A DNA stretch of 57,929 bases from Verrucomicrobiota bacterium. GTDB lineage: Bacteria; Verrucomicrobiota; Verrucomicrobiia; Limisphaerales; UBA1096. The stretch is taken from the NCBI GenBank assembly GCA_036166355.1, contig JAYZHR010000147.1, positions 1 to 57,929 on the forward strand, read 5' to 3'. Below the pieces are notes generated by a model. It did no database searches. It was not told the DNA's origin and was given only the letters and a program-made list of their open reading frames with translations. The number at the start of each line of letters is the position of its first letter. Position 1 is the stretch's first letter. Below are positions 13,310-52,513 of this stretch, in pieces. A program made the position numbers and the translations under genes.

Positions 13310-13410
13310 TCATCTGCCATGCTGTCAAGCGATAGTCGCGTTAGCTCGACAAGTTGGCTTTATCTGACGCATATTTGCTGTGCTTTGATGGGTATGTTTT
13401 TTTAGTCCAA

Positions 13411-21270: not shown

Positions 21271-22392
21271 ATGCCTTCTGAAACAAAGTTTCCAACTGAA
21301 CCGGTTTGTCTTGTATTTGGGGACGAAGATTTTCTAGTTCGTGATCGAGCAAAGCAGATTTACAAATACTGGTGCTCGCATGCTGAGGGAATGGATCATG
21401 AGGTGATAGATGGATCAGTGCGAAACTCTGAAGAAGCTATTGGGGTATTGTCTAAGCTTGATGAGGCGTTGCAGACACTTCCATTTTTTGGAGGTAATAA
21501 AGTTGTTTGGTTAAGAGGTGTAAATTTTTTGGGAGACGATCGCACAGCATCAAGTTTAACAGTAAAAGACAGACTGACTGAGCTAGCTAAATCTTGGGAA
21601 GCCTTTGATTGGCAAGGTGTTCAATTATTAATTAGTGCTAATAAGGTAGATAAGCGTAAGAGCTTTTTTAAAACGCTTAAAAGTTTTGCCTCGATAGAGG
21701 ATAAATCTTTCAGTGATAAAGAGCGTGGTGGCAGGGCTGCCATGGTGGTGCGGCAGCGTTTATCGGAACTCGGTAAGAAAATTTCGCCGCATGTGGCGGA
21801 TGAGTTGGTTTTGTTTGCTGGCACTAATCTTCAGCAATTATATATCGAGTCGGATAAGCTGGCCTTGTATATTGGCGAGCGTGATGAGGTGGTGCGGCAG
21901 GATGTATATGAGATTTCGACTCGTACAAAGCAGTCTAAAGCATTTGCGTTAGCTGATGCTTTAGGTGAAAGAAATTTGCCAAAGCTGTTACGTGTGCTTG
22001 ATGAGGAACTTTGGGAAGTGAAACTTGATAATAAGAAAAGTCCCATTGCTTTGCTTTACGGTTTGATTTCAAAAGTGCGAACGATGATCTTTTTGAGGGA
22101 AATGATTCGAATGAAATGGATTAGTCCAAGTAACGGATATCCTCAATTTAAAGCACAATTAGAGGCTATAGCTGATGATCTTCTGCCAGAAGATCGAAAG
22201 TTTAATCCTAAATTAATGCATCCCTACATGCTGTTTAATGCACTTGGACATGCCAGGCGATATTCAGAAATAGAGCTTACTAGAGCTATGGATATTTTAC
22301 TGCAATGTAATCGTCAATTGGTTTCTTCAAGCACTGAGAATACACTTGTGCTGCAGCAAGCGCTTGTGCAAATCGTTAGCAAGTCATCTTGA
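21271..22392 (+). CDS. holA: DNA polymerase III delta subunit
   Basis: The 373-aa ORF has the N-terminal VCLVFGDEDFLV pattern and the length typical of HolA. No strongly diagnostic motif was seen, so confidence is moderate. Confidence 0.65.
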   Translation: MPSETKFPTEPVCLVFGDEDFLVRDRAKQIYKYWCSHAEGMDHEVIDGSVRNSEEAIGVLSKLDEALQTLPFFGGNKVVWLRGVNFLGDDRTASSLTVKDRLTELAKSWEAFDWQGVQLLISANKVDKRKSFFKTLKSFASIEDKSFSDKERGGRAAMVVRQRLSELGKKISPHVADELVLFAGTNLQQLYIESDKLALYIGERDEVVRQDVYEISTRTKQSKAFALADALGERNLPKLLRVLDEELWEVKLDNKKSPIALLYGLISKVRTMIFLREMIRMKWISPSNGYPQFKAQLEAIADDLLPEDRKFNPKLMHPYMLFNALGHARRYSEIELTRAMDILLQCNRQLVSSSTENTLVLQQALVQIVSKSS

Positions 22393-23661
22393 TTTTGAAT
22401 TAATCAACTTAATGCATTGAAGTGTTTTTTGATCTCGAATGAATATTTGGCCATTCGAATAAGCAGGAAAACTCCAAGATTTCCCACAAGCTTGCATGCG
22501 TCCGATCTCTTCATATTTTTTTGGATCTGGATTAATCAATATCAGTTCTCCAAATGAGCCAAGGACAAGTAATTTTTTCCCATCAGTTAATGTTGAAGCA
22601 TAAAAACTGCCAAAATTTCTTTCTTCCCAATTCAGTTTTCCATTGATTATATCGACACATATGAATCGATCTTTTTCAGCGAAACCGTAAAGATAATCTC
22701 CGATAATTACTGGTGTTGAAAGGTTGATTTTGAGTTTTTGGTTTTTCCATTTAGGTATTGCTTTCCCATTTTTTCCTATGCCACTCATGCAGATCATTCC
22801 TTCTGAGTGAGAGGCAGTGATAATATTGTTACCTCTAATGACCGGAGTGAGCACGTTACGATAAGCGCGAGTTGGTACAGGTTCGTTCCAAAGCATATTT
22901 CCATCAATTGAATTTATGCCTATTAAACGTTCAGTAGTTAGAGTGATAAATTGTTTTTTACCAGCGATTTTAGCCATTATAGGGCTGGCATAGCTTGCGA
23001 GGTCGTTTTGTGATTTCCAAATTACTTCCCCATTATACTTATTAAAACATACTACCCCGGCGCCATCTTCACTTCCTACTTGGCAAATCAGATATTCACC
23101 ATCTACTAGTGGCGTACCACTGTATCCTCTTCTAGATGCAGCTCCTACGTTTTGCGCCTTGTTTATAATCCATTTTACATTGAAGTCTTTTTGATAGTCT
23201 GTATCCCAAATTCTAGATCCATCTTTCACTCTTAAACAGGTAAGTTTTCCGCGGCAGGTTTGTACGTAGATTCGTTCTCTGTCAAATAATGGAGTGCAAC
23301 GTGGGCCAGCTCCAAATCCATCATTGGGATAAGTTTGTCCATAGGCAGTTTTCCAGAGTTCTTTTCCGGTCTTCTTATCGAGCATTCGAAGAACCTCGGA
23401 GTCTCCTTGTTCCTCTGATATGGCAAGAAAGTTATCCTGTATAACTACAGCGGAATGGCCTGGGCCAACGTCGATTTTCCATAATATATCTGGGCTATCT
23501 GTAAGCGTATTCGGTAAAAAATCGTCTTTATTGACATAGGCATCAGAACTCGGTCCACGCCATTTTGGCCAATCACCTGCCTGTGCAATTTCAATGCACA
23601 AATCCAAAGCAGCAAAGATAGTCAGCGCAATATATTTGTATTGGAATGAATAAGAGATCAT
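22384..23661 (-). CDS. Exported PQQ-like (BamB-like) beta-propeller repeat protein
   Basis: The 425-aa ORF has an N-terminal hydrophobic signal. It has GDWPKWRGP followed by repeated D..TGK..W / G..lW blades. It shows no quinoprotein active-site features. Confidence 0.8.
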   Translation of the reverse strand: MISYSFQYKYIALTIFAALDLCIEIAQAGDWPKWRGPSSDAYVNKDDFLPNTLTDSPDILWKIDVGPGHSAVVIQDNFLAISEEQGDSEVLRMLDKKTGKELWKTAYGQTYPNDGFGAGPRCTPLFDRERIYVQTCRGKLTCLRVKDGSRIWDTDYQKDFNVKWIINKAQNVGAASRRGYSGTPLVDGEYLICQVGSEDGAGVVCFNKYNGEVIWKSQNDLASYASPIMAKIAGKKQFITLTTERLIGINSIDGNMLWNEPVPTRAYRNVLTPVIRGNNIITASHSEGMICMSGIGKNGKAIPKWKNQKLKINLSTPVIIGDYLYGFAEKDRFICVDIINGKLNWEERNFGSFYASTLTDGKKLLVLGSFGELILINPDPKKYEEIGRMQACGKSWSFPAYSNGQIFIRDQKTLQCIKLINSKSR

Positions 23662-26422: not shown

Positions 26423-28645
26423 TCATCTTCTTCCCCATCTCGAACGACTATTAAATCGAGAAAGTCGCTCTTGGAGTGAACGATCGTCAAGTGCCATTAG
26501 CTGCCATCTCTTTAATCGATCTGTTTTAGCGAAATACTCAATGGTGCTTTGTAGTCTCTCTTCGACTTCAAATAAATCATATGGCCGCTTGGCATCGTTA
26601 ATGATGTAAGGCCTTAGTCTTTCATAATCCTGCATTACTTGATCAACTATTTTTTTTGGGTTCCAAACTGTTGCCAATAAGTAGTGCAGGGCTTCCTCTA
26701 GCATCAACTCTCCCTCATCAGTAGAGCGAAATGCTTCGACTACAACACTACGTCCTCGGCTGGAACCAAAAAGATTATTGCTACTATTTCGAAAAAGTTG
26801 ATCTGCTCCATGAGGTATAAAGTAGAACTTACGGTCACTTGGATTCCGATAAATTCGGTAATTGTTTGGAGAGAGGTATCCATCCCAATGATCACAAAGA
26901 ATTTCCATTGCCATGAAACGAGCGAAGTGGCCGAGATCTAACCAGTCTTTAAGCGGAGCAAGATCATTCATATCTTTCGCTTTTGCAGCGGCATCAGCGA
27001 AACCCATTAGGAGGCCACGTTCGGCTGTTTTAGGGTCGCTATCTAGATCGAGGTTTTTCCAGTTAGTTATATCAGTTGGTCCTTCATAAAGATCTCCACT
27101 AGGGTCTTTAAACCATCTTTTGAGAAAGTCTTCGGTTGAAGCTTCAACTTGAACATACAGTCCAAAGGGAGCTCCGTTAATTGATACAGTTGCATGGCCA
27201 ACACGCGGTGCAGGTAAACCGGCTTCCCGAAATAGTGCATATCCTAAACGTTCTCGAATATAGGTAGAATCCTGTGCTGCGTTATTAAGCTGTATTTTAT
27301 TTAATCCTTTGAAGCGTTGGCCATTATTAAAAGCATTAAACTTTACAGTGAAGCCGTTTTTGTTTTGGCCATCAAAGGGTCGAAAGCTTCCAAGAAAGCC
27401 TTTGAGCCGCACCCCTACGTCTTTGAGTTTTATATTCTTATATTGAAAAGTACCTCTGACAAATATCTTCGGTTCTTTTTTGAGGCTTTCAATGCTTTCT
27501 TTGGGTAAAGTTATTTCATATTCGGATACAGAGTTACTTTCAAATAGTTGAGAGGCATCATCTTGTTCTTTGAGAGGTTTCAAGAACATTCCAGTTGGAT
27601 TAGGTCGTCCTATAGTTTTTATTGGTTTGTTATCAGTGAATGTTTTAAGAATCTCATCAATTTTATTTTTACCAGCTTCATCAGGTATGGAGTCTTTGGC
27701 TAAGTCTAAAAATAGAATAGATAAATTGCCGTCATATTCATTCAGGTTTGTAGCAATATTAGATAATTCCTCTATCGATAACGACTCATCAGATTGATTA
27801 CTGTTTTGTTGTCGTGATCTATTGGTTAAAAATGAAAAATTACCTTCGCGTTCACGTCTGCGTTCTCCGTCATCTTGAACGCGCATTGCTGGCGGCCGAG
27901 CATTCTCTGGAAGACGTCGAGAGAAGGCACTTCGATATCTTTCCATTTCTCGATTGCGCTGGCTTTCCATTTGTGTGGTTTCCGGATAAATTTTCCGAAT
28001 AAGAGAACGCATTGCATTGCCGCTTTCTGGATGAGCTGTCCTTAGAAATTCGGATGCATCATTTAATTTTGAAATCTCGATGCTTTGCTTCATAAGAGCT
28101 TCTAGTGCCTTTTGATCGTCGGCATTATTAAATGCTTCTTGGTTGATGTTTATATCGTTTAGTATGCGGCGTTGTGCTTCTTTTGATTCTCCGAAAAACT
28201 CTACGTTTTTGGCATTGGCAATGATTCTAGCCGCTTGGTTAGCTTGTCCAACTGCAAGTAAGGTTTGAACGTGCTTATGATCAAGCAATGCCTTTCGATT
28301 TTTATCTAGTGTTTTACGGATAGTGTTTCGAACTGACTGAGCGTTGGCATCACTCAACTTCATTTCAAAAACTCCCCAAGACTTCAGTGTGCGCTCTGCT
28401 TCAATAGCTATTTCTTTTTCCGGGGAATATCTCGAAGTTGACTTAAGTAGCCTAGCTGCCTCATAGCTAAGACCCATCTCAGCCATCGAGCGAGCTGTCC
28501 GAACGAGTGAGCTATTTATTTCTGAGAGGCGCCTGCCGCGTAAATGATCCATAGGATCAATCTTGGATATATTGTCTTTTGCCAAAGGCTCTACGATAAT
28601 TGACAACAAACACAATGATATAATGCGAAGAGATTTGAAATTCAT
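26423..28645 (-). CDS. Exported CotH-family (atypical kinase fold) protein with long helical N-terminal region
   Basis: The 740-aa ORF has a signal peptide, MNFKSLRIISLCLLSIIV. The C-terminal half matches the CotH pattern: IQLNNAAQDSTYIRERLGYALFREAGLPAPR, GLYVQVE, GDLYEG and NYRIYRNPSDRKFYFIPHGADQLF. Confidence 0.8.
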   Translation of the reverse strand: MNFKSLRIISLCLLSIIVEPLAKDNISKIDPMDHLRGRRLSEINSSLVRTARSMAEMGLSYEAARLLKSTSRYSPEKEIAIEAERTLKSWGVFEMKLSDANAQSVRNTIRKTLDKNRKALLDHKHVQTLLAVGQANQAARIIANAKNVEFFGESKEAQRRILNDININQEAFNNADDQKALEALMKQSIEISKLNDASEFLRTAHPESGNAMRSLIRKIYPETTQMESQRNREMERYRSAFSRRLPENARPPAMRVQDDGERRREREGNFSFLTNRSRQQNSNQSDESLSIEELSNIATNLNEYDGNLSILFLDLAKDSIPDEAGKNKIDEILKTFTDNKPIKTIGRPNPTGMFLKPLKEQDDASQLFESNSVSEYEITLPKESIESLKKEPKIFVRGTFQYKNIKLKDVGVRLKGFLGSFRPFDGQNKNGFTVKFNAFNNGQRFKGLNKIQLNNAAQDSTYIRERLGYALFREAGLPAPRVGHATVSINGAPFGLYVQVEASTEDFLKRWFKDPSGDLYEGPTDITNWKNLDLDSDPKTAERGLLMGFADAAAKAKDMNDLAPLKDWLDLGHFARFMAMEILCDHWDGYLSPNNYRIYRNPSDRKFYFIPHGADQLFRNSSNNLFGSSRGRSVVVEAFRSTDEGELMLEEALHYLLATVWNPKKIVDQVMQDYERLRPYIINDAKRPYDLFEVEERLQSTIEYFAKTDRLKRWQLMALDDRSLQERLSRFNSRSRWGRR

Positions 28646-28727: not shown

Positions 28728-30113
28728 CTATTCTGACTTTAAACGTAGATCGAAGCATGCCATTTCATGGCTATTTCGAACAAATAAAAATCCACCAGAA
28801 ATAGCAGGGTAATTCCATGTTCGGCCTCCTTTCAAAGCTTTAAATTGAATTTTTTCTAGAAAGGTATTTGGATTCATTTCGACTAACGTCATATCACCAG
28901 AATCACCAAGAATAATTAAGTGACCTGAAGCAGCAACAATCTGCCCATATCCATATTTATTGCCACGCCACTTAAGGGTTCCATCCAAGGCATTTATGCA
29001 CACAAGTCGATTTTCGTTAAGCCCGTATATAAAACCATCCCAATATACAGCACTTGAAAATTTGGTTTTCAATAGCTTGCTTTTCCAAAGAGTCTTGGTT
29101 TTCATTTTATTGCCATCTTCAACAATTTGAAATGCTTCTGCACCTTTCCCGTAACCAGCGGAAATTAGTATAGTGTGATCGTTTAATTGTGCAGGTTGTG
29201 AGATGTTGTTATTATTAACTGATATTCTCCATTTGTGAGACCAGTACAACTTCCCATTCGTTGGATTGATTGACATAACTATGCCTTCGAGTGCAACTAT
29301 GAGTTGTTCCTTGTTGAGTATATTAAAAAGGGTTGGAGTGCTATAAACTTGATTACCGTTGTGTTTTTTCCAGACCACTTTACCGGTATCTTTATCTAAA
29401 GCGACGATGGCATTATCATTTTGTCCTCCAGGAACTAAGATTACAGAATTTTTGTAAATGAAAGGGGATCCTGATACTCCCCAATAGGGGACTTCCGATT
29501 TATTCTCTTCGACTATATTTTTTTTCCATAGGAGTTTTCCTGAATTTGCATCAAGACAGTTTAAATGTCCTTTTGCCCCTAAGGTAAAAAGACGATCACG
29601 GCTCCAAGTAGGAGTAGATCTTGGGCCTATTCCTCCAAAATATTCCTCGAATTTGGCTGGATATTCATGTTTCCACTTAATTGCGCCAGTATCGGCTGAA
29701 AAGGCAGCTACTACCTCATTTTCATCTTGTTGTTCTATAGTAAATATCAGTCCCTTGGCGATAGAAAAAGATGAATGGCCGATTCCAATCAATTTACGCC
29801 AAAGTAGTTTTGGGCCCTCTTTTGGCCAATCTGTTAAGATGGGTTGTTCCCTATATATTCCCTCACTATTTGGGCCGCGATATGAAGTCCAGTAAGGGGA
29901 ATTTAAGTCATCATTAGTAATTTCAACTTTAGGTCCTAATATTTGGTTTTTTCGTTGTTGTTTAACTTCGTCAGTTTGAGAGCCAGATTTAGACCAAACC
30001 AGTTTTGGTATGGCGCTTCCTCGCCACTCAAGATGATTACATGCAGTCCAGGTTACGACGGATGAAATTATAAATAACCAAAGAAGTATTCTAGTTAATT
30101 GATTTAATATCAT
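28728..30113 (-). CDS. Exported PQQ-like beta-propeller repeat protein (paralogue of 22384..23661)
   Basis: The 461-aa ORF has an N-terminal TM/signal segment. It has YRGPNSEGIY and repeated D..TG...WK blades. Its start overlaps the upstream methyltransferase stop (ATGA at 30110..30113). Confidence 0.8.
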   Translation of the reverse strand: MILNQLTRILLWLFIISSVVTWTACNHLEWRGSAIPKLVWSKSGSQTDEVKQQRKNQILGPKVEITNDDLNSPYWTSYRGPNSEGIYREQPILTDWPKEGPKLLWRKLIGIGHSSFSIAKGLIFTIEQQDENEVVAAFSADTGAIKWKHEYPAKFEEYFGGIGPRSTPTWSRDRLFTLGAKGHLNCLDANSGKLLWKKNIVEENKSEVPYWGVSGSPFIYKNSVILVPGGQNDNAIVALDKDTGKVVWKKHNGNQVYSTPTLFNILNKEQLIVALEGIVMSINPTNGKLYWSHKWRISVNNNNISQPAQLNDHTILISAGYGKGAEAFQIVEDGNKMKTKTLWKSKLLKTKFSSAVYWDGFIYGLNENRLVCINALDGTLKWRGNKYGYGQIVAASGHLIILGDSGDMTLVEMNPNTFLEKIQFKALKGGRTWNYPAISGGFLFVRNSHEMACFDLRLKSE

Positions 30114-31132
30114 TCATTTTTCCTTTTCATTGTGTAATGACTTACAATCCACTCATTCCCACCAGATGTTTTCCATAATTCTGAACACGCCATAAAAAAG
30201 ATTCTCCAATAGGACCACCATTTAGTGGTTTGATTATTTCCGTAAGTTTTAGAGAAAATAGATTTAATTTGTTTTTCGTATTTTTGCATGTTTTTTAACC
30301 AAGCTTCAGCTGTTTTATGATAGTGAATTCCATTGACTATCCATTCATTATCGATAACTAGATTCTGATTAAAATAATTTAATAGGTCATGGCTAGGCAT
30401 AATGCCTCCAGTGAAAAAATGTCTCCCCATCCAGTTAGATGATCCTTCAGTTTCAAAATGATAGGCGAACTTCTTATGAGAGAATATGTGCACAAACAAT
30501 CTGCCGTTAGGCTTTAGCCAACTGTCTATTCGACCTAGCAGCTCTTGATAGTTTTTCATGTGTTCGAACATTTCGACTGACACAATCCTGTCGAATTTTT
30601 TGTCTATTTCAAAAGAATTCATGTCACATGTTTTCACTTCTATATTTTTTAAGCCTCTCTTGTTCGCAAGATTCATAATGAATTTTCGTTGATCTTGGGA
30701 ATTTGAAACTGAGATGATTTTGGAATTGGGATAATTTTCAGCCATCCAAAGACTTATCGCTCCCCAGCCACACCCTAGTTCAAGGATATCTTGTCCATCT
30801 TTCAGTTCGGCACGTTCGCATGTAAGTTTCAACATGTGCGCTTCGGCTTCATCGAGAGATTTTGTGCCTTCTGGCCAATAACAGCAGCTATATTTCAAAT
30901 GTTTTCCGAGACACATTTGAAAGAAATCTGGAGGAACCTCATAGTGCTGATCGTTTGCTGCTTGAGTTTCTATAGCGACAGGAAGTGTTATTAATTCTTC
31001 AATTAATCGGTCTTTTGCCCCTGCCTGATGCTTGATTGTTTCAGATTTGATCCGGATTTGATTTAATTTTCTTATGCGTTGCCTAATTAGAAAATCGGGG
31101 ATTAAGTTTTTTTCTAGTAGCCGATCAATCAT
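30110..31132 (-). CDS. SAM-dependent methyltransferase, cyclopropane-fatty-acyl-phospholipid-synthase family (second copy)
   Basis: The 340-aa ORF has HYEVPPDFFQMCLGKHLKYSCCYW. The SAM motif is ILELGCGWGAISLWMAE. Confidence 0.85.
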   Translation of the reverse strand: MIDRLLEKNLIPDFLIRQRIRKLNQIRIKSETIKHQAGAKDRLIEELITLPVAIETQAANDQHYEVPPDFFQMCLGKHLKYSCCYWPEGTKSLDEAEAHMLKLTCERAELKDGQDILELGCGWGAISLWMAENYPNSKIISVSNSQDQRKFIMNLANKRGLKNIEVKTCDMNSFEIDKKFDRIVSVEMFEHMKNYQELLGRIDSWLKPNGRLFVHIFSHKKFAYHFETEGSSNWMGRHFFTGGIMPSHDLLNYFNQNLVIDNEWIVNGIHYHKTAEAWLKNMQKYEKQIKSIFSKTYGNNQTTKWWSYWRIFFMACSELWKTSGGNEWIVSHYTMKRKNE

Positions 31133-31917
31133 TATAAGTATTTTTTTGGTGGTAAAGGGATGAAGCTGGAAGTTGTTTTTTGATATTTTTTGTAGGCATT
31201 TCCTTTTGATATGAGGTTTTGTTTTTCATTGTTACTGACTCCAGTAACTTTCAATAGAAGAAATAGCATTAGAATTGGACAGTAAATTGTCCACCATCCG
31301 CCTGAGTTAATTGAAAAAATAAAAAATCCAACCCAGGCTAACCACTGAAAGAAATAATTTGGGTGCCGTGAATAATTCCATAATCCAGTGTTGCATACTT
31401 CATTTGGACTGTTGTTATTTTTGAATCTGGATAACTGTAAGTCTGCCAAAGCTTCGCCTGCGATAGCGATTAATATAGTTAATAAACCAAGATATTCAAT
31501 TGGGCTGATTTTTGGATCTTGATTCCAAGTAGGCACAGCGAAAATCAATGAAAAAATTATTATTGCCAGGCCCTGAAAATGAAAAAAAACAAACATTTTT
31601 AATGTGCTATTTGGACCCCATTTCTTTCTTAATTCTGAATATCTGCCGTCTTCTTTTGGATGTAGCTTCCAACAACGAATCAAAAGATGTATCCCTAGTC
31701 TGCTGGCCCAAATAAATGCTATGCTTCCCAAAAGAACTCGTCTGTGTTCATGTCCCTCACTGGTAAAAGAAAAATAAGCAGCTAGAATAGCAAAGCTAAA
31801 ACCCCATAAAACATCTATTATTCCTGCGTTGCGTATGGTTATGCCAATTACAAACGTGATGTTTATTATAAGGAAAACACCTATCCAAGCTGATGAAAGT
31901 TGGTCAAGTGGATTCAT
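31132..31917 (-). CDS. DUF1295-family polytopic membrane protein (steroid-reductase/ICMT-like superfamily)
   Basis: The 261-aa ORF is multi-TM. It carries the hallmark YSRHPNYFFQWLAWVGF. Confidence 0.8.
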   Translation of the reverse strand: MNPLDQLSSAWIGVFLIINITFVIGITIRNAGIIDVLWGFSFAILAAYFSFTSEGHEHRRVLLGSIAFIWASRLGIHLLIRCWKLHPKEDGRYSELRKKWGPNSTLKMFVFFHFQGLAIIIFSLIFAVPTWNQDPKISPIEYLGLLTILIAIAGEALADLQLSRFKNNNSPNEVCNTGLWNYSRHPNYFFQWLAWVGFFIFSINSGGWWTIYCPILMLFLLLKVTGVSNNEKQNLISKGNAYKKYQKTTSSFIPLPPKKYL

Positions 31918-32251
31918 TATTTCTTTTCAATAGAAAATCTTCGAAAGAGGCATTATTTGGTAATCGAAAAGCTTGAAACAAACCGTATGAAGCTATTGCG
32001 ATGTTTCCTAGCGAGCATATGGCAAGAAATGATGGAATTCTAATGAACCAAGATTTTTCTTTATACATTAACCATCCGTAAAAAATGAAAAATCCCCAAT
32101 AACAATCTAAAAGAGTTGCTAAAAACCATGGGCTATTTCCTTGTTCTTTGAAGTAGGTAAACATGTTTTGCTGAGATCCGGCATAGATACAAATCAAAAG
32201 CATTGATACCAACATGAGAGCAAAGAATACTAGAAGAAGATTACGGGTCAT
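31904..32251 (-). CDS. Small membrane protein, family not assigned
   Basis: The 115-aa ORF has 3-4 predicted hydrophobic helices. It sits inside the operon with a 14-nt overlap downstream and a 4-nt gap upstream. Confidence 0.6.
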   Translation of the reverse strand: MTRNLLLVFFALMLVSMLLICIYAGSQQNMFTYFKEQGNSPWFLATLLDCYWGFFIFYGWLMYKEKSWFIRIPSFLAICSLGNIAIASYGLFQAFRLPNNASFEDFLLKRNNEST

Positions 32252-32255
32252 TGGC

Positions 32256-33509
32256 TTATTTTAGCGTTAAATTATTAGGCCTAGTGTAGACAGCTTGAGC
32301 AACGCCAACATTCCTCATAGAAAATCCGGCAGAGCAGTAGCAGAGATAATAATTCCATTTACGAATAAAATTTTCATCAAAGCCCAATGCGCGAACTTCA
32401 GGAAGAGATTTGTTAAATCTTTCGTGCCAAGCCATGAGCGTTTTTGAGTAATTACCACTGAACTCCTCCCATGAATGAAGAAACAGTGTGCCGACCCTGT
32501 TCATTGCTTCTGCTACTCGATGCTGTGCCAGTAATAATGATCCAGGGAAAATGTGTTTTTGAGTCCAGTCGTTGCCCTTTCGGAGTTCTTGATACCGCGA
32601 ATCAGGACATGTGATAATTTGTAATCCTAGAAGTCCTTCGGGTTTTAGTAGTTTATTGCATTGGCGGAAATATTCCTCGAGGTATGCGTCACCAACTGCT
32701 TCCATCATTTCAATTGAAACGATTTTATCAAATTTGCCAACTACTTTCCTGTAGTCTTCAAATAGGAAGGTAACTCTGTCTGATAGCCCTAATGTGTTTA
32801 TTCGTTCCTTTGCGTAGTGCAACTGTTCTTCAGAAATGGTTATGCCTGTGATTTGGCATCCATACTGGCTTGCGGCATGTTCTGCAAATCCGCCCCAGCC
32901 ACATCCGATTTCAAGAACATGATCAGATTCCTTGATTTTGAGCTTTTTGCAAAGTCGATCATATTTAGCGATTTGAGCCTCATTAAGATTGTCGTCATTA
33001 TTTTCAAAGTATGCACAGGAATAAGTCATGCTTTTATCAAGGAAAAGCTTATAGAATTCGTTTCCAAGATCATAATGTTCGTGGATATTCTTTTTGCTAT
33101 TATCAAGTGTATTGGATCGGAATTTATGACGTATTCGGTTTATAATCCCTAGACTGTTAATTAGCAGAGATCGAGCTGCTTTAAGAGATTTTGATGGTGA
33201 TTTCTTTACATTTAAAATAAACCAAGAAATTACTGTGCAAATATCATTTGTGTCCCAGTCTCCATCAACATAAGCCTCACCGAGCCCTATATCTCCATAT
33301 AGCGCACATTTAGTAAAAAAATTATTTGAACGGATCCGCATGATGGCTGGCTCACAACTATCATCTTCACCGTAACTAATTATTTTTCCGCAAGGAAGGT
33401 GCATTTCCATTCGTCCTTTATTCATTTTACTGAAGTATTGAAGGATTATTTTTTTGCTTTGATTGATCCAGAACGAGTCCTCGCTGGAATGGGTCTTAGT
33501 CTTATTCAT
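32256..33509 (-). CDS. Cyclopropane-fatty-acyl-phospholipid synthase family methyltransferase
   Basis: The 417-aa ORF has the hallmark HYDLGNEFYKLFLDKSMTYSCAYF. The SAM motif is VLEIGCGWGGFAEHAA. Confidence 0.9.
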   Translation of the reverse strand: MNKTKTHSSEDSFWINQSKKIILQYFSKMNKGRMEMHLPCGKIISYGEDDSCEPAIMRIRSNNFFTKCALYGDIGLGEAYVDGDWDTNDICTVISWFILNVKKSPSKSLKAARSLLINSLGIINRIRHKFRSNTLDNSKKNIHEHYDLGNEFYKLFLDKSMTYSCAYFENNDDNLNEAQIAKYDRLCKKLKIKESDHVLEIGCGWGGFAEHAASQYGCQITGITISEEQLHYAKERINTLGLSDRVTFLFEDYRKVVGKFDKIVSIEMMEAVGDAYLEEYFRQCNKLLKPEGLLGLQIITCPDSRYQELRKGNDWTQKHIFPGSLLLAQHRVAEAMNRVGTLFLHSWEEFSGNYSKTLMAWHERFNKSLPEVRALGFDENFIRKWNYYLCYCSAGFSMRNVGVAQAVYTRPNNLTLK

Positions 33510-33530
33510 TATATGTGAGAAAATTTAATT

Positions 33531-34298
33531 TTACCTTAACAAATCTTTTTGCAGTTGAGGGTTGTCTTTTTTCGGATAGTGTTTCAAACCCTTTATATTT
33601 AGCCTTAAAGCATGCCAGTGGATTAGGAGGATTACTTTAAGGGTCAGTAGGGGGTATTTTATTGTCAGCCATATTAATTGACGATTGGTAAAATATTTAG
33701 CTTCACCATGAACAGAGCTAGCAAGAATTTGTGTCTTTCCTTCAAATTCATTTATTTTTATATCGAGTAACTCATTTGGAATGCCAAAATCAAAATCAAA
33801 TTCTAAATCAAGACTAGAGAATGGTGATACATAAAAATGTTTTGGAATCCTTAATTTAAAACGATTGTTAACAATATTTTCAATTGGGTACAATTTCATT
33901 TCCCGGAATGTATTGCTTACTTCAGCGATAGAGCAAACTGGCTGGGAATTTTTATCATAAATAAAATAGAATGATACGGGGTTGAAAATATATCCAGCAA
34001 TACGTGGCATTGTAATAAGGAATATTCGACAGTTCTTGCTTACTTCAATGCCTGTGGAGTTAGTATACTCAACTATTTTTCTCTTGATATTTTTATTGTT
34101 ATTATTGGCATGATCTTTGTCGAAAAATGAAAAGAGATTTAGCCTGTTGTAGCTAAATAAGAAGTGTTTACTTGAGAGTGATTGGAGTTCATCTAGATCA
34201 AGGCAAAACATAAATATTCGGTAAATAAAACCGTTCCTTATTGGGTTAAGGCGTTTATGCATAACCCGGCATTCATAGATTCTAGAAATTAATTCCAA
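33531..34298 (-). CDS. DUF1365-family protein
   Basis: The 255-aa ORF starts IYECRVMHKRLNPIRNGFIYRIFMFCLDLDEL, which is typical of DUF1365. It shows the conserved pairing with an FAD oxidoreductase and a CFA-synthase-like gene. Confidence 0.8.
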   Translation of the reverse strand: MELISRIYECRVMHKRLNPIRNGFIYRIFMFCLDLDELQSLSSKHFLFSYNRLNLFSFFDKDHANNNNKNIKRKIVEYTNSTGIEVSKNCRIFLITMPRIAGYIFNPVSFYFIYDKNSQPVCSIAEVSNTFREMKLYPIENIVNNRFKLRIPKHFYVSPFSSLDLEFDFDFGIPNELLDIKINEFEGKTQILASSVHGEAKYFTNRQLIWLTIKYPLLTLKVILLIHWHALRLNIKGLKHYPKKDNPQLQKDLLR

Positions 34299-35569
34299 AG
34301 AGATTTTCCAAGTATTGTTTCACAGAGTTCCATGGCAGAGTTAAATGCATCCTCATGGAATCCGTATTTAAAGTAGCTTCCGCAAAAGTAAATTGTTTGT
34401 GATTTGGATTTTCGATTAAGTAGCTTTAGTTCAGGCTGTGCATTAACAGCGGCTGCATCAAACAATGGGTGTTCAAAATCAACTTTTTTTATAATTGAAT
34501 CAGGATTGATTTCTTCTTCGCCGTTAATATTTACAAAATAATTAATGTTTTCAGATACATTCTGAAGGTTGTTCATCCAGTATATTGTTCTTGGTAGGAT
34601 TTTTCCATTAGATGCCAGTTTCATTCGATAGTTCCAAGATGCCCAGCATAATTCGTTACTTGGCATTACTGTTGAGTCAGTATGCAGGATGCCGGTGTTC
34701 TTCTGGTATTTGAATTTTTTCAAGATTTTAAATTCTTCAGGTGCATCTGAATTTAAAAGTGATAATGACTGATCCGCGTGGCTTGCTAAAATGACCTTGT
34801 CGAATTTTTGGCTATTACCGTCATTAAAGTATACTGTTGCTTGTTTGTTGTCTGGTACAATTCTTTCTACTGTATTGCCGGTTTGTATACGATTTTCAAA
34901 AGGCTTAATTAGGCGTTTTACATATTCTCGTGAACCGCCATCAGGCGTGAGCCATTGGTGTTGAGTTTTCATGCCTAGGAAACCGTGATTATGGAAAAAA
35001 CGCAGGAGCGTTGTAGCCGGAAAATTTAGCATTAATTCAGGAGGGGAAGACCATATGGCCGAACTCATTGGAGTTATGTAGAGATTTAGAAAATCGTCGC
35101 CATAATTCATTTCACTCACATACTCGTGTAGGGTCAAAGAATCATACTTTCCTGATTCCAAAGCGTTTATGGCCTCGGAGTTGAATTTGTTAATCTTTAG
35201 TAGCATTTTCCAATGCTTTAACTTAAATAGGTTTTTACGTTGGCCAAATAGATGGTTCAAACTAGAGCCGCAATACTCAAGATTATTTGGTAAATGTTGA
35301 ACACTAAAGGACATATTTGATTTTTTATATGGCACATTAAGTTTGTCAAATAAACGGGTAAGATTGGGGTAGGTCTCCTTGTTAAAAACCATAAAACCCA
35401 TATCAATAGGGATTTTTTTCTTATCTTCAATCGCTTCTGCTGTAAGTGAATGGCCTCCTATATGTTGATTTTTATCAAATAAAAATACGTCAAAATATTT
35501 ATGAAGAAAATAGCCGCATGTCATCCCTGCTATGCCTGTCCCAATGATTGCCAGTTTGGGCTTCGTCAT
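34289..35569 (-). CDS. NAD/FAD-binding oxidoreductase (amine-oxidase/desaturase-like)
   Basis: The 426-aa ORF has the N-terminal dinucleotide fold KLAIIGTGIAGMTCGYFL...FDKNQHIGGH. Confidence 0.85.
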   Translation of the reverse strand: MTKPKLAIIGTGIAGMTCGYFLHKYFDVFLFDKNQHIGGHSLTAEAIEDKKKIPIDMGFMVFNKETYPNLTRLFDKLNVPYKKSNMSFSVQHLPNNLEYCGSSLNHLFGQRKNLFKLKHWKMLLKINKFNSEAINALESGKYDSLTLHEYVSEMNYGDDFLNLYITPMSSAIWSSPPELMLNFPATTLLRFFHNHGFLGMKTQHQWLTPDGGSREYVKRLIKPFENRIQTGNTVERIVPDNKQATVYFNDGNSQKFDKVILASHADQSLSLLNSDAPEEFKILKKFKYQKNTGILHTDSTVMPSNELCWASWNYRMKLASNGKILPRTIYWMNNLQNVSENINYFVNINGEEEINPDSIIKKVDFEHPLFDAAAVNAQPELKLLNRKSKSQTIYFCGSYFKYGFHEDAFNSAMELCETILGKSLWN

Positions 35570-36498
35570 TATAAATTATCTTTACGACCTTCATCCAAGA
35601 CGCGCTGAGGCACAGGTTTGAGGTCGTATATTAGCCCGCACATGGCCATTAGTCTTAGCCCGTAATATGTGGGATCTATTTCCCACCAGTAAAAGCCTTG
35701 TCTTGTGGAGTGCATATAATAGTGATGGTTGTTGTGCCATCCTTCGCCCAGTGTAATCAAAGATAGCAAGAAATTGTTTCGGCTATGATCGCCTGTCTTG
35801 AAACGTTGTTTCCCATATATATGAGATAGTGAATTAATAGTAGAGGTTCCATGTAACAGTAGTGTTGTGCTGATAAAAAATCCCCATACTACTAACTGCC
35901 AACCGCTTGTTTCCAAGATGGGCCAGTTTGAGGAAATCCATTCTCCAAAAAAATAAAGACCAAAAGCCATTATAGCTGGAATTAGTTTGTTGAGTCGGTT
36001 TAAAAAGACCAATTCAGGATACTTGGCAAAGTCTCTTATTTGATCATAGTCTGTAGCGAAGTTTTTTTTGCTAGCAATCCAGCCAATATGCGACCAAAGA
36101 AAACTATTTGTGTGAGGAGAGTGGACGTCTTGAACAGTATCTGATTCCCGATGGTGTTTTCTATGATGAGAAGCCCACCAAAGTGCGCCTCTTTGTAGCG
36201 CAGTTGATGCAAAAGCGGCAAAAAAGAATTGCATCAATCGTGATGTTTTAAAGGTTCGATGTGAGAAATAACGATGTAGAAATCCTGTAATTGCAAACAT
36301 TCTTGAAAAATAAAGAAATAACGCCAATGAAATGGCAAACCAGCTCCATCCAACCCATATTATTCCCAGACACCCAAAGTGAATAAAAAACAGAGAAAAA
36401 CATCGTGCCGCATCTAGCCCGTCTTCATCCTTATTATTGTTATTTGTTTGAAAATCGGAATAAAAAGATTGAATGGCTGATTTGAAGTTCAGTTTCAT
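35569..36498 (-). CDS. Membrane acyl-CoA/acyl-lipid desaturase (Delta9, stearoyl-CoA-desaturase-like)
   Basis: The 309-aa ORF has three histidine boxes: HRYFSH, HRKHH and HNNHH. TM segments are present. Confidence 0.9.
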   Translation of the reverse strand: MKLNFKSAIQSFYSDFQTNNNNKDEDGLDAARCFSLFFIHFGCLGIIWVGWSWFAISLALFLYFSRMFAITGFLHRYFSHRTFKTSRLMQFFFAAFASTALQRGALWWASHHRKHHRESDTVQDVHSPHTNSFLWSHIGWIASKKNFATDYDQIRDFAKYPELVFLNRLNKLIPAIMAFGLYFFGEWISSNWPILETSGWQLVVWGFFISTTLLLHGTSTINSLSHIYGKQRFKTGDHSRNNFLLSLITLGEGWHNNHHYYMHSTRQGFYWWEIDPTYYGLRLMAMCGLIYDLKPVPQRVLDEGRKDNL

Positions 36499-36503
36499 TA
36501 ATA

Positions 36504-36701
36504 TTATTTCTTGAACTTGTCACAATGAATGGCGGCTTTTTCACCAATTTCTGATCTGGCATTAAGATCCTCTAATGTTTCTACATGCGTTACCTTTCGG
36601 AAGCATACTAAACAAAGTGCAAGATGGGATTCACCGGACTTTTCAAGGTTAGTCCAATCTTTCGGGCAATTATCTTCAGAGCAATTTGCGACTCTAATCA
36701 T
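36504..36701 (-). CDS. 65-aa Cys-rich miniprotein (possible zinc ribbon)
   Basis: The ATG is at 36701. The ORF lies 22 nt after the gpx stop and 5 nt before the desaturase start. It has CxxxxC (CSEDNC), CxxC (CLVC) and a distal C. No family was recognised. Confidence 0.5.
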   Translation of the reverse strand: MIRVANCSEDNCPKDWTNLEKSGESHLALCLVCFRKVTHVETLEDLNARSEIGEKAAIHCDKFKK

Positions 36702-36723
36702 TTTTTATGAAATGGAGTTTTTG

Positions 36724-37212
36724 TTACTGATTTAGCATTTTTTCCAATGCATTAAGGACTCGTTTTGATGTTGGTTTAGTGAATGGAGCAAATCGTTCGG
36801 CAACCTCTCCAGATCTATTAATCAAAAATTTTGAGAAGTTCCATAATATTCGCCCTCCATATTTATTGTGATTTGTTAGGTGTTCATACAGTGGATGCAT
36901 TTCCTTACCCTTAACTTTTACTTTGGAAAACATCGGAAAAGTTACTTTATAATTTAAACTACAGAATTTTTGGATATCTGAATCTGTTCCGGGCTCTTGT
37001 TTGCCGAAATCGTTAGAAGGAAAGCCGCACACTACTAGTCCTCTTGGAGAAAACTTTTCATATAGTTCCTGTAGTCCAGAGTATTGAGATGTAAAACCAC
37101 ATTTTGAAGCAACATTCACTATCAAAAGAACTTTGCCTGAATATTTATCTAGGCTCCTTTTTGTGCCAGTAATGTCAGTGACAGTGATGGTGTAGATATT
37201 TGGAGACATCAT
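36724..37212 (-). CDS. gpx: Glutathione peroxidase (Cys type)
   Basis: The 162-aa ORF has VNVASKCGFT (peroxidatic Cys encoded by TGT at 37099..37101), FPSNDFGKQEPG and WNFSKFL. Confidence 0.95.
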   Translation of the reverse strand: MMSPNIYTITVTDITGTKRSLDKYSGKVLLIVNVASKCGFTSQYSGLQELYEKFSPRGLVVCGFPSNDFGKQEPGTDSDIQKFCSLNYKVTFPMFSKVKVKGKEMHPLYEHLTNHNKYGGRILWNFSKFLINRSGEVAERFAPFTKPTSKRVLNALEKMLNQ

Positions 37213-37241: not shown

Positions 37242-39143
37242 TCAATTTTTGAAGATCTCCAAAAAGGAGTTACATGAGAATGCTACAAACATTGCTAAAT
37301 CTTTATCGCCTGGAAGTACTACGGTGGCTGGGGTTTCTGGAGGTCTTATTTTTAAGGATCGCTCCAATGCCTTTTCCATTGCGGGTTTAGCATTAGTTGC
37401 CTTCTCGCCTAGCAGTTCAATTGTCCGCGCAGCATGGGTGACAACGATTAAATTTTTATGATTGAGTGCATCTATTAAAATAGGCACAGCAAATGTTAAA
37501 TCGTCGTGGATAGCTAGTGCATTAGCGATTTCAATACGTGCAGCAAAGGATGAATCGTTGAGCTTGGTTTTTAGAATGTTCTTGGCTTTGTTTGAGAGTT
37601 TGGTTTTTGCTGCTAGCCCAATTGCTCCCCAATAGCGTATAGCTGGATTTTCTGAATTGATATTATTTAATAATTCAGACTCATTTGAAGTGCCAACTTG
37701 TGCTGCTGCAGTTCTAATTTCTTTTAATGGAATATTTCCGCCTTGCCCAAGCTCCCAGCCTGTTAGTTCGCTAAACTTTGTCCAAGCTTCGCTTTCAGGT
37801 AAAAAGCCAAGATCGGCCGTTTCATTGACGTGACGGACATGTTCAGATCTTAATCTAAGTAATACTTTTTGGTGTTTTGTTGAGTTTACAAGGTTCTTCA
37901 AGTTCTGAGGATCCTTCTCGCAGTCGTATAGTTCTTCTGTGGGGCGATTTGGCCCTGCGAAATGCCATTGTTCTGGGGTCATCTTTCCCTCTTTAGCCAT
38001 ACGATAAAATTCGTGACGAATTTCACCTTTATCAGGCCAAGCAGTTGGTTGGTTGTATCCCAAATGAGGCATGTAATTCCGAATATAAAGATATTTATGA
38101 TCTCTAACAGAGCGTGCGAGATCACGGACTTCATCCACGCGATCACGGTGGCCATAAACATAACGACGTTTCAATTTGGTTTTTGGCCCGAGGAACGATT
38201 TGCCTTGCATAATATCAGGTATCAAAATGCCACTAATTTCAAGGATACTGGGAGCAAAGTCCACGAAACTGACAAGTTGATCAGAAACGCTGCCAGGTTT
38301 AGTTGGTGCAAGGTGTTGCCACTTTTTTGGGAAATGAATTATTAAGGGGACATGCATTCCGCTATCTAATAGTGCTCTCTTATGCCGAGGCATTCCACTT
38401 CCATGATCACTGAAGAAAAAGATAATTGTATTTTCGTTAAGGCTATCATCCTTGAGTTGTTTCAAAATCATTCCGACTTGAATATCCATTGCTGTTACGC
38501 AGTCGTAAAAACGAGCTACCTCGCGACGAATCAGCGGTGTGTCTGGATAGTACGCGGGTAATGGTGCCTTCAGTGGATCATGTATTTCTCCAGGTGGTAT
38601 CGTGCTTTGAATCTCTTTCTTGAATCGCTTGTAAGGCCAAACCATTGATCGGCTCTGGTGGGAAGTCATCAAGTTAAATACACTGAAAAAGGGTTGTGCT
38701 TTATCAGTCCGATTACGCCAATGTGCTGAATTGCTATTTTCATTCCAAGAAGCTTCAATTATTTCCGCGTAGTTGCCAGTGTTATAATCGGTCTTTACGT
38801 TGTTTGTTGTGTAATATCCACTGTTACGAAGCAATGCTGGAAAACCGCGCATCTGCTTTGGTATGGAAAAGCCCGATCGCATTTGTTGAGTCGAAAGTGA
38901 AGTTGGGTAACATCCTGTTATGAGGCATGATCTTGAAGGGGAGCAGACTGGAGCATTTGCAAATGCATTAGTGTATAGGACACTTTCTTTTGCTAGTTTA
39001 TCAATATTTGGTGTGGTAGCAAAAGTATCCCCATAGCATCCAAGTGTGGGGCTCATATCCTCTGCAGTGATCCAGAGGATGTTAGGTCGTTCAACAGCTT
39101 GTAAAACAACACAATATCCTAGTAACAATAATAATAAACGCAC
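37242..39143 (-). CDS. Exported sulfatase fused to a C-terminal HEAT-repeat domain
   Basis: The 633-aa ORF has a signal peptide, PNILWITAED, and the FGly motif C-S-P-S-R in VCSPSRSCLITG. The last roughly 150 aa carry HEAT-like repeats (NPAIRYWGAIGLA, FAARIEIANALA, VVTHAARTIELLG). Confidence 0.9.
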   Translation of the reverse strand: MRLLLLLLGYCVVLQAVERPNILWITAEDMSPTLGCYGDTFATTPNIDKLAKESVLYTNAFANAPVCSPSRSCLITGCYPTSLSTQQMRSGFSIPKQMRGFPALLRNSGYYTTNNVKTDYNTGNYAEIIEASWNENSNSAHWRNRTDKAQPFFSVFNLMTSHQSRSMVWPYKRFKKEIQSTIPPGEIHDPLKAPLPAYYPDTPLIRREVARFYDCVTAMDIQVGMILKQLKDDSLNENTIIFFFSDHGSGMPRHKRALLDSGMHVPLIIHFPKKWQHLAPTKPGSVSDQLVSFVDFAPSILEISGILIPDIMQGKSFLGPKTKLKRRYVYGHRDRVDEVRDLARSVRDHKYLYIRNYMPHLGYNQPTAWPDKGEIRHEFYRMAKEGKMTPEQWHFAGPNRPTEELYDCEKDPQNLKNLVNSTKHQKVLLRLRSEHVRHVNETADLGFLPESEAWTKFSELTGWELGQGGNIPLKEIRTAAAQVGTSNESELLNNINSENPAIRYWGAIGLAAKTKLSNKAKNILKTKLNDSSFAARIEIANALAIHDDLTFAVPILIDALNHKNLIVVTHAARTIELLGEKATNAKPAMEKALERSLKIRPPETPATVVLPGDKDLAMFVAFSCNSFLEIFKN

Positions 39144-46996: not shown

Positions 46997-46999
46997 GGT

Positions 47000-50607: not shown

Positions 50608-50748
50608 AACGCAAAAAATTGAGCGGTGATCAAGCCGCGAACGGAATCACGGCATACTAGCGTTCCGTTGCAAAGATGCACGACCAAAACGGTGCCGGAT
50701 TGACAAAGCTACGCGAGGCTGCGATTTCATCCGTACCAAATAATTAAA

Positions 50749-52335: not shown

Positions 52336-52513
52336 CTGTTTCGAATCTTAACTCGCCTTGAGGTCGGTGAAGCGCAGGAACAGTCGTGACAAGAGACTCA
52401 TGCGAATCGGCAAAGCCAAGTGGAAGTCAGGCTCGACGAGGCGCACGTTTTTTTTCATCATTCTTGAACTGAAACCAAGTACTTAGCCAAGTGCGCCAAT
52501 ATAAGATTACATT

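Follow-up and report, generated by a model that had tools for sequence, protein, structure and literature searches.

Furan fatty acids are potent scavengers of membrane radicals and singlet oxygen, and their biosynthesis has been established in two alphaproteobacteria only. In C. sphaeroides, UfaM methylates cis-vaccenate, the FAD enzyme UfaD (RSP1091) yields a methyl-diene, and the DUF1365 protein UfaO (RSP1090) inserts O2-derived oxygen to give 9M5-FuFA (PMC7380195). In Rhodopseudomonas palustris, RPA2571-2570-2569 (ufaD, ufaO and ufaM) are necessary and sufficient for the monomethyl furan fatty acid, and the second methyl group comes from FufM (RPA0924), a methylase with 26% identity to UfaM (PMC7380195). 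Here we analyze a 57,929-nt stretch of DNA from a Verrucomicrobiota bacterium (contig JAYZHR010000147.1 of assembly GCA_036166355.1), called the window throughout. Positions 28728-37212 hold ten minus-strand genes, among them relatives of ufaD, ufaO and ufaM in the R. palustris order. We estimate, with a probability of roughly 0.55, that genes 3-9 of this run (30110-36498) turn saturated, lipid-bound chains into furan fatty acids that carry one or two methyl groups.

Results

Organization of the locus

All ten open reading frames (ORFs) lie on the minus strand exactly where a sequence-only reading of the window had placed them, and every junction is as that reading gave it. Calculated from the coordinates, neighboring genes are separated by gaps of 22, 5, 21 and 4 nt or share overlaps of 1, 10, 14, 1 and 4 nt. 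Profile searches with Pfam upheld the families that had been named and placed none of the core ORFs in an unrelated family. The products of genes 6 and 9 belong to the cyclopropane fatty acid (CFA) synthase family, whose members use S-adenosylmethionine (SAM). The ten genes are as follows.

Gene 1, 36724-37212 (-): glutathione peroxidase, Cys-type and BtuE-like (Pfam GSHPx, 1.9e-40)
Gene 2, 36504-36701 (-): 65-aa miniprotein with four cysteines (C7, C12, C30, C33); no family match
Gene 3, 35569-36498 (-): putative Delta9 membrane acyl desaturase of the DesC/SCD type (Pfam FA_desaturase, 7.6e-18)
Gene 4, 34289-35569 (-): UfaD-like FAD/NAD-binding oxidoreductase of the amine-oxidase/phytoene-desaturase type (Amino_oxidase, 1.5e-17; NAD_binding_8, 3.3e-14)
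Gene 5, 33531-34298 (-): UfaO-like DUF1365 protein (Pfam DUF1365, 2e-70, full length)
Gene 6, 32256-33509 (-): CFA-synthase-family SAM methylase of 417 aa in the ufaM position (Pfam CMAS, 7e-86)
Gene 7, 31904-32251 (-): 115-aa DUF1475-like membrane protein (Pfam DUF1475, 3.3e-7, above the gathering score)
Gene 8, 31132-31917 (-): DUF1295 polytopic membrane enzyme of the ICMT/steroid-5-alpha-reductase superfamily (DUF1295, 1e-62; Steroid_dh, 5.7e-6)
Gene 9, 30110-31132 (-): SAM methylase resembling FufM, LIME and coclaurine N-methyltransferase (Pfam CMAS, 1.9e-44)
Gene 10, 28728-30113 (-): exported, probably lipidated beta-propeller of the PQQ_2/BamB-like type (Pfam PQQ_2, 6.5e-27)

Genes 4-6 resemble ufaD, ufaO and ufaM in family and order

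The order of genes 4-6 matches that of R. palustris ufaD-ufaO-ufaM (RPA2571-2570-2569), and the sequence-only reading was right to treat a FAD-oxidoreductase/DUF1365/CFA-synthase-like trio as a conserved module. Gene 4 occupies the position of RPA2571/RSP1091 and overlaps the downstream DUF1365 gene by 10 nt. Its product answers the description of UfaD, an NAD/FAD-binding, phytoene-desaturase-like protein encoded immediately upstream of a ufaO-like gene, and shares 35-37.5% identity with the FAD oxidoreductases of proteobacterial clusters linked to sigmaE-ChrR.

As a DUF1365 protein, the gene 5 product belongs to the UfaO family, a match made by family and not by alignment to Q3IYV8. It retains all invariant columns of a 61-sequence DUF1365 alignment. 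The start codon is TTG. Some gene callers use Met13 instead (the 243-aa forms P0004 and P0007), but relatives conserve both the 12 N-terminal residues and the 10-nt overlap with gene 4, which supports the TTG start. The confident AlphaFold model of the protein (predicted local distance difference test score [pLDDT] 93.5) has a beta-barrel and then, at residues 205-235, a long hydrophobic helix at the C-terminus. The single sequence had no match among PDB sequences. A fold search returned weak likeness (E ~3e-3, template modeling [TM] scores of 0.3-0.48) to calycin-like barrels, namely nitrobindin, the OssO/OlmO spirocyclases, the FABP-like protein Ycf58 and a phycobilin lyase. We regard a ligand-enclosing barrel as a lead for DUF1365 rather than as a result.

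The best solved relative of gene 6 is E. coli CFA synthase (6bqc, 4.7e-63). We nevertheless rejected its identification as a canonical Cfa, because it scores 303 bits where the NCBIfam cfa equivalog cut-off is 400 and lacks an equivalent of His266. Gln297 stands at that position in gene 6, and residues 265-273 read SIEMMEAVG compared to SVGMFEHVG in E. coli Cfa. Our six canonical comparators were E. coli Cfa and five solved cyclopropane/mycolic methyltransferases; all six have histidine at this position, as seen in the E. coli, Lactobacillus and Aquifex CFA synthases, MmaA2 and PcaA. We take His266 of E. coli Cfa to bind the bicarbonate ion on which cyclopropanation depends. The glutamine and the SIEMxEAxG form are present in 67/67 in-cluster methylases from Verrucomicrobiota-type and proteobacterial loci, a set that includes L004-L014 and 58 metagenomic loci (see below for numbering). 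Glutamine in place of the canonical histidine argues against ordinary cyclopropanation by the in-cluster methylases, which form a distinct subfamily that probably has a product different from that of cyclopropane synthases. The Gln/SIEMxEAxG signature could mark a product-specificity class. Gene 6 is a candidate ufaM by family and by its RPA2569-like position, and the Gln-for-His exchange sets it apart from canonical cyclopropane synthases.

A FufM-like methylase and a DesC-like desaturase

Gene 9 matches coclaurine N-methyltransferase (6gkv) over residues 5-336 with an E-value of 4.9e-75, compared to 1.6e-32 for E. coli CFA synthase, and for gene 6 the ranking is inverted. Arabidopsis LIME1/At4g33110, whose annotation is coclaurine N-methyltransferase, shares 37.9% identity with FufM. 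These matches place gene 9, by sequence, in the FufM subfamily; the assignment is transitive through At4g33110 and not by alignment to Q6NBA4. Genes 9 and 6 are 24-27% identical to one another, in agreement with the published value of 26% for UfaM and FufM. Gene 9 is also 44-47% identical to proteobacterial genes that are located after DUF1295.

The gene 3 product aligns with mouse SCD1 (4ymk, 1.8e-30), and its HRYFSH, HRKHH and HNNHH motifs all fall on SCD1 histidine boxes. It thus combines the HxxxxH, HxxHH and HxxHH boxes with SCD1/DesC homology, as expected of an SCD/DesC-type enzyme, and is 51-53% identical to cyanobacterial desC1 and to in-cluster acyl-CoA desaturases of Acinetobacter. 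DesC is an acyl-lipid desaturase that acts on lipid-bound chains. The DesC-like type of gene 3 therefore fits pathway enzymes that act on esterified chains, and we infer that the desaturase supplies their cis-monoene substrate.

Two conserved membrane proteins

Gene 7 encodes a protein with two to three hydrophobic segments. Its assignment to DUF1475 is new relative to the sequence-only reading, and residues W42, D49, Y51, E65, R71, G82 and N83 are invariant. We rejected the idea that it is a diverged form of the DUF2878 protein of proteobacterial clusters (hhalign probability of 0.8%).

The RHPNYF motif of DUF1295 is likewise invariant. Searched as a single sequence, gene 8 had no match among PDB sequences. 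The DUF1295 family profile matched AtTam46 (8xku, 2.5e-5), ICMT (4a2n, 0.002), SRD5A2 (7bw1, 0.012) and a sterol reductase (0.24), in each case through the invariant RHPNYF region and at the superfamily level only. These profile matches would suit a C=C reductase that uses NADPH as well as a methyltransferase that uses SAM. DUF1295 is also represented in the Ralstonia, Mesorhizobium, Acinetobacter and Streptomyces clusters described below.

The core recurs with different flanking genes

The nearest genomes are three marine Verrucomicrobiota metagenome-assembled genomes (MAGs; labeled Verrucomicrobiales, Limisphaerales and Pedosphaeraceae), in keeping with the earlier assignment of the DNA to a bacterium of the Planctomycetota-Verrucomicrobiota-Chlamydiota (PVC) group. 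They share twelve genes in identical order with the window at 70-90% protein identity. Loci of relatives were numbered from L001 onward, and wider relatives were chosen by DUF1365 proteins 49-59% identical to gene 5. Marine contigs with other outer flanks carry the order propeller, peroxidase, desaturase, FAD oxidoreductase, DUF1365, methylase, DUF1475, DUF1295, second methylase, propeller; the peroxidase is missing from one such contig. In non-marine relatives the order is desaturase, FAD oxidoreductase, DUF1365, methylase, DUF1475, DUF2062, DUF1295, second methylase, and the region upstream encodes either a divergent extracytoplasmic function (ECF) sigma factor with an RskA-type anti-sigma factor, or a lipocalin.

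We extended this comparison to 80 metagenomic contig loci with DUF1365 identities of 34-55%, annotated by tblastn and counted for each gene only where the contig reaches far enough to evaluate it. The FAD oxidoreductase was found in 54/58 loci, the CFA-synthase-like methylase in 54/61, DUF1295 in 39/48 and the second methylase in 33/42. The desaturase was directly upstream of the FAD oxidoreductase in 26 of 45 loci, DUF1475 lay between the methylase and DUF1295 in 32 of 61, and DUF2062 was present in 26 of 48. Twenty of the 80 loci had all six of desaturase, FAD oxidoreductase, DUF1365, CFA-synthase-like methylase, DUF1295 and second methylase. The dominant order was desaturase-FAD oxidoreductase-DUF1365-methylase-(DUF1475)-(DUF2062)-DUF1295-FufM-like methylase. 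This order is more than chance, as it recurs with different flanks in relatives at 50-59% DUF1365 identity and in most metagenomic loci.

The same census gave 0/39 for the glutathione peroxidase, 0/39 for the 65-aa miniprotein and 1/37 for the downstream propeller. The core recurs across relatives while genes 1, 2 and 10 do not, which identifies genes 3-9 as the unit under selection and genes 1, 2 and 10 as add-ons confined to the marine clade. The view of all ten genes as one conserved unit is thus not borne out.

Reduced versions occur in other named bacteria. Ralstonia wenshanensis (L012) has FAD oxidoreductase-DUF1365-CFA synthase-DUF1295-second CFA synthase, and Streptomyces sp. NBC_00158 (L099) has FAD oxidoreductase-DUF1365-CFA synthase-DUF1295. 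Mesorhizobium has sigmaE-ChrR-hydrolase-DUF1295-second CFA synthase, divergent from FAD oxidoreductase-DUF1365-CFA synthase. The Pseudoalteromonas order is sigmaE-ChrR-photolyase-SDR-FAD oxidoreductase-DUF1365-CFA synthase-DUF2878-CHI-DUF3833.

The sequence-only reading knew of no characterized system with the composition of this locus. Judged by the census frequencies of the desaturase, DUF1295 and second methylase, and by Acinetobacter plasmids with the same order, it is not rare. An extended operon with desaturase, DUF1475, DUF1295 and FufM-like methylase is common in sequence databases, and the marine version, to which peroxidase, miniprotein and propeller are added, is one more local variant of it. 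We found no description of this extended operon in the literature searched.

Lineage-specific neighbors: peroxidase, miniprotein and propeller

The gene 1 translation contains the motifs VASKCGFT, FGKQEPG and WNFSKF and scores 186.6 bits against NCBIfam PRK10606, below the cut-off of 270. A peroxidase gene adjoins the cluster in the marine clade only (the window and L001-L006). Gene 1 probably encodes a lineage-specific lipid hydroperoxide reductase.

Gene 2 has no Pfam or NCBIfam match. The miniprotein is 68-83% conserved in L001-L004, where synonymous and nonsynonymous changes number 21:9, 19:12 and 18:19. This conservation, together with synonymous changes that exceed or equal nonsynonymous ones, indicates a real gene under purifying selection. 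The family has 14 representatives among 1.8 billion clusters (P0124-P0137), is unannotated, and comprises proteins of 60-90 aa with four conserved cysteines in the pattern C-x4-C-P-x-(D/x)-(W/F) ... C-x2-C-(F/L/W/S/V)-(R/K)-x-V. Distant relatives lie on short contigs in unrelated contexts and not beside a desaturase. The AlphaFold model was unusable (pLDDT 50). The miniprotein is probably a zinc-ribbon-like metal binder; a role in the pathway is doubtful, and service as electron donor to the desaturase has low probability. A zinc-binding anti-sigma factor (ZAS, HxxxCxxC) was also considered and rejected, since the histidine of H26-x3-C30-x2-C33 gives way to D, Y or A elsewhere in the family. 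The miniprotein gave no zf-HC2 match even at an E-value of 10, and no sigma gene is nearby.

Gene 10 begins with an N-terminal signal peptide that has a conserved W-T/V-A-C lipobox-like motif. A propeller gene at the downstream end of the cluster is a trait of the marine clade alone (L004-L007, L019 and L020). The window encodes a paralogue, a second exported PQQ_2/BamB-like propeller at 22384-23661 (-). Such paralogues are frequent in the genomes of relatives and flank the cluster on both sides in L005-L007. Miniprotein and propeller are probably merely neighbors of the module.

Regulation

The sequence-only reading had linked the trio to the RpoE-ChrR regulon. For this window the link is not supported: Pfam detected no sigma or anti-sigma domain in the 30 ORFs scanned out of 46 listed ORFs of at least 120 aa, and the patterns TGCATCC-N16-CGAT and TGATCC-N16-CGTA have zero matches in the window. 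In contrast, seven relatives (L008, L021, L023, L055, L061, L067 and L072) have a sigma/anti-sigma pair and a promoter-like motif. This motif, TGCATCC-N16-(A)CGAT, lies between the ECF sigma gene and the desaturase/FAD oxidoreductase genes (L008, 7605-7744). Some relatives have back-to-back copies, GGATGCA-N8-10-TGCATCC, that serve the ECF sigma gene on one side and the lipid operon on the other. The motif resembles TGATCC-N16-CGTA, which is seen at the ChrR-linked loci L094 and L098, and the anti-sigma factor of these relatives is RskA-type, without a cupin domain. A motif match upstream of the L005 desaturase was dropped for its wrong spacing. A parallel may exist in mycobacterial sigK-rskA-Rv0446c-Rv0449c, for which autoregulation from the Rv0449c promoter is confirmed.

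A MerR-family regulator of ~330 aa is encoded beside the core in R. wenshanensis (L012) and Streptomyces (L099). The Ralstonia core also adjoins three photolyase/cryptochrome genes and a GTP cyclohydrolase I gene. The gene content of these two loci suggests that light-dependent control replaces sigmaE-ChrR there.

Boundaries, base composition and the remainder of the window

The ten genes had been described as a translationally coupled operon. Overlapping and tight geometry is indeed present, including TAATG and ATGA overlaps in the junction sequences, but the case for coupling is one of geometry, with no Shine-Dalgarno-like motifs found. The same-strand run is longer than ten genes: a sulfatase gene (37242-39143, -) ends 29 nt upstream of the peroxidase gene, and beyond the propeller gene an 82-nt gap leads to the start of a CotH gene (26423-28645, -). 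Because these two genes extend the run, the sequence does not define the operon boundaries. A scan of the window for promoter- and terminator-like sites gave no excess over shuffled sequence and no intergenic terminators, and an Rfam scan of the window gave zero matches. The sulfatase and CotH genes are syntenic in the closest relatives only and are therefore probably co-located with the cluster rather than functionally linked to it. The sulfatase carries C-terminal HEAT repeats.

The GC content of the ten genes, 0.33-0.39, is the minimum of the window (0.40-0.55 elsewhere); sampled lines had put it among the lowest. GC content at third codon positions (GC3) is 0.29-0.355 in the ten genes, equal to the 0.29-0.36 of flanking genes. 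The low GC of the cluster reflects amino-acid composition at codon positions 1 and 2, and the equal GC3 rules out a foreign origin on grounds of low GC.

GC3 departs from this range at 44258-54897, where it is 0.47-0.60 compared to 0.29-0.36 in the remaining window. This region encodes WD40/PSCyt1, DUF1549/DUF1553 and DUF1501 proteins, two sulfatases and a xylose-isomerase-like TIM barrel, and looks like a compositionally foreign island or recent acquisition. Two overlapping genes at 13354-14981 (+), for a UbiX-like flavoprotein and a UbiA-family prenyltransferase, probably act as a pair in quinone biosynthesis. The remainder of the window encodes sulfatases and PSCyt/PSD-domain proteins, which are typical of PVC bacteria.

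Discussion

A candidate furan fatty acid pathway

We propose that genes 3-9 form a self-contained module that would use O2 and SAM on chains already esterified in membrane lipids. The DesC-like Delta9 desaturase would convert a saturated chain into a cis-monoene, whose double bond gene 6 would methylate to a methyl-trans-alkene in a UfaM-type step, assigned from gene position and the lost histidine. The FAD oxidoreductase would add a second double bond to give a conjugated methyl-diene (UfaD-type), the DUF1365 barrel protein would close the furan ring by inserting O2-derived oxygen (UfaO-type), and gene 9 would add the second methyl group (FufM-type). The DUF1295 and DUF1475-like proteins are envisaged as conserved membrane partners without an assigned step, and the glutathione peroxidase as a clade-specific companion that would remove lipid hydroperoxides. 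The product would be expected to scavenge singlet oxygen and lipid radicals in the membrane. The gene families, their order and the conservation of that order are observed. The chemistry of the last four steps has been shown in the two alphaproteobacteria only, and we infer both its transfer to proteins of ~35% identity and the role of the desaturase. The Chlamydomonas singlet-oxygen regulon includes CFA1 and CFA2, the latter with a second annotation as coclaurine N-methyltransferase, together with DUF1365, DUF1295 and GPX5, and this co-occurrence of the same families makes the peroxidase a plausible functional companion.

Several points weigh against a furan product. The window has no stress regulator and no recognizable ECF promoter. 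The published furan pathway has no step for DUF1295 or DUF1475, and fufM alone is enough for dimethylation in a heterologous host (PMC7380195). In R. sphaeroides, the in-cluster methylase RSP1089 and two other operon genes are dispensable and UfaM is encoded elsewhere (PMC7380195). An in-cluster position is therefore no proof of a UfaM role. Among proteobacterial homologues linked to sigmaE-ChrR, the nearest reach only 26-39% identity in DUF1365 and 35-38% in the FAD oxidoreductase and the methylase. The likeness to UfaM, UfaD, UfaO and FufM is one of family and gene order, not direct alignment. Finally, we found no report of furan fatty acids in Verrucomicrobiota in the searchable literature.

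A stronger claim would make the seven-gene core a complete and so far unreported pathway that begins with a saturated lipid-bound chain and ends with a dimethyl furan fatty acid, with the desaturase, DUF1295 and the DUF1475-like protein as obligatory new steps or scaffolds and the Gln-type methylases as the true, widespread UfaM class. We consider this unlikely; if it were true, abundant marine Verrucomicrobiota would be an unrecognized source of the furan fatty acids that build up in marine food webs.

Alternative explanations

The alternative that best survives, though improbable on present evidence, is that the locus makes methyl-branched, methylene or otherwise modified chains rather than furans, with DUF1295 as an NADPH-dependent C=C reductase. 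One methylase would turn the Delta9 monoene into a 10-methylene chain or methyl-alkene, and genes 4 and 5 would carry out another oxidation. There is precedent in the CFA-synthase-like BfaB, which together with a reductase converts 18:1 Delta9 into 10-methyl stearate through a methylene intermediate (PMC5660069), and methylation at C10 would naturally draw on a Delta9 desaturase. Gene 8 scores above the Pfam gathering threshold for Steroid_dh, and the DUF1295 profile reaches SRD5A2 and a sterol reductase; yet that profile fits ICMT-type methyltransferases at least as well as reductases. DUF1295 is present in 39/48 loci yet lacks a role in the published furan pathway. However, the reductase partner BfaA is described as a MurB-like FAD-linked oxidoreductase (PMC5660069), a domain absent from the amine-oxidase-type gene 4 product, and DUF1365 with an amine-oxidase-type enzyme is exactly the pair shown to make the diene and the furan (PMC7380195).

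We give little credence to a pathway that needs all ten genes, for example with the miniprotein as a rubredoxin-like donor and the propeller as a periplasmic partner. Junctions are tight throughout, and in marine relatives the peroxidase and propeller keep their adjacent positions where the outer flanks differ. The miniprotein gene lies under purifying selection 5 nt upstream of the desaturase gene, and DesC-type desaturases need a small iron-sulfur electron donor. On the other hand, the census returned the peroxidase, miniprotein and downstream propeller in 0/39, 0/39 and 1/37 loci, and L005-L009 lack the miniprotein while retaining the whole core. Distant miniprotein relatives are found in unrelated contexts, propeller paralogues are numerous in these genomes, and packing is nearly as close for the unrelated sulfatase and CotH genes (29- and 82-nt gaps).

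It is very unlikely that gene 9 is an amine N-methyltransferase, acting for instance on a lipid head group at a locus that combines acyl-chain and head-group modification: its ten best PDB matches are all plant alkaloid N-methyltransferases (coclaurine, pavine and tetrahydroprotoberberine; 4.9e-75 to 1.4e-56), but FufM, of the same subfamily via At4g33110, is a proven furan-ring C-methylase in vitro, and gene 9 is almost always paired with DUF1295 inside an acyl-modification cluster.

Significance and comparison with known systems

On the favored furan reading, the locus offers concrete candidates for missing or accessory steps of the furan pathway. As a rule, the ufaD-ufaO-methylase trio forms part of a larger conserved operon, which brings its own Delta9 desaturase, a FufM-type methylase and the uncharacterized membrane proteins DUF1295 and DUF1475. 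This arrangement spans Verrucomicrobiota and, in named records, Acinetobacter (Gammaproteobacteria), and Beta- and Alphaproteobacteria and Actinomycetota have reduced versions without the desaturase. The Gln-for-His signature separates the in-cluster methylases from cyclopropane synthases. For the window itself, the gain is mainly one of functional annotation.

Among described systems, the actinobacterial BfaA/BfaB pathway likewise uses a CFA-synthase-like methylase on a Delta9 monoene, followed by a redox partner. It differs in that BfaA is a MurB-like FAD-linked reductase and the pathway has no DUF1365 protein (PMC5660069), a comparison made by description. We rejected the identification of the locus as a BfaA/BfaB pathway, since gene 4, again compared by description, has Amino_oxidase and NAD_binding_8 domains only and no MurB-like reductase. 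The CFA synthase, coclaurine-N-methyltransferase-like, DUF1365, DUF1295 and glutathione peroxidase families of the window are co-regulated or co-localized in the SAK1-dependent singlet-oxygen regulon of Chlamydomonas and on Arabidopsis lipid droplets (UFAM/D1, UFAO1 and LIME1). The genes of these eukaryotic counterparts are dispersed, and products have not been demonstrated there.

The annotated, uncharacterized cluster on plasmid pYH12207-1 of Acinetobacter piscicola (NZ_CP048660.1, L014) has the identical order of acyl-CoA desaturase, FAD oxidoreductase, DUF1365, CFA synthase, DUF1295 and SAM methyltransferase, with 52.5% identity to the window in the desaturase and 46% in the second methylase. 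The Acinetobacter cluster differs from the window in its plasmid location, in an upstream lipocalin gene and in the absence of DUF1475, peroxidase, miniprotein and propeller. The presence of the six-gene core on Acinetobacter plasmids indicates that the cluster is horizontally mobile and available in cultured strains, which offer a tractable test system. Several of the plasmids with the six-gene core are typed as mobilizable, and their sources are animal faeces, manure, water and krill. On plasmids of clinical A. baumannii and on related ones, the desaturase matches were shorter and split.

The sigmaE-ChrR clusters of proteobacteria (the Pseudoalteromonas, Mesorhizobium and Ralstonia loci) have the FAD oxidoreductase-DUF1365-CFA synthase core in common with the window, and those of Mesorhizobium and Ralstonia also share the pair of DUF1295 and FufM-like genes. 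Proteobacterial clusters carry SDR, NTF2, DUF2878, chalcone-isomerase-like, DUF3833, lipocalin, photolyase and sigmaE-ChrR or MerR genes, none of which is in the window, which instead has the desaturase, DUF1475, peroxidase, miniprotein and propeller.

The closest described system is the Ufa/FufM pathway of C. sphaeroides and R. palustris (Lemke et al. 2020, PMC7380195), with which the window shares three families in the order of RPA2571-2570-2569. The window also encodes a second methylase of the FufM subfamily, and lipid-bound substrates, O2 and SAM are predicted for its enzymes as well. It differs in belonging to Verrucomicrobiota, in sequence (~35% identity) and in having no adjacent RpoE-ChrR, and it joins the DesC-like desaturase, DUF1475, DUF1295 and FufM-like genes in one operon. 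The locus thus represents a known and partly characterized type of cluster, not a new system, with a core that is widespread in bacteria.

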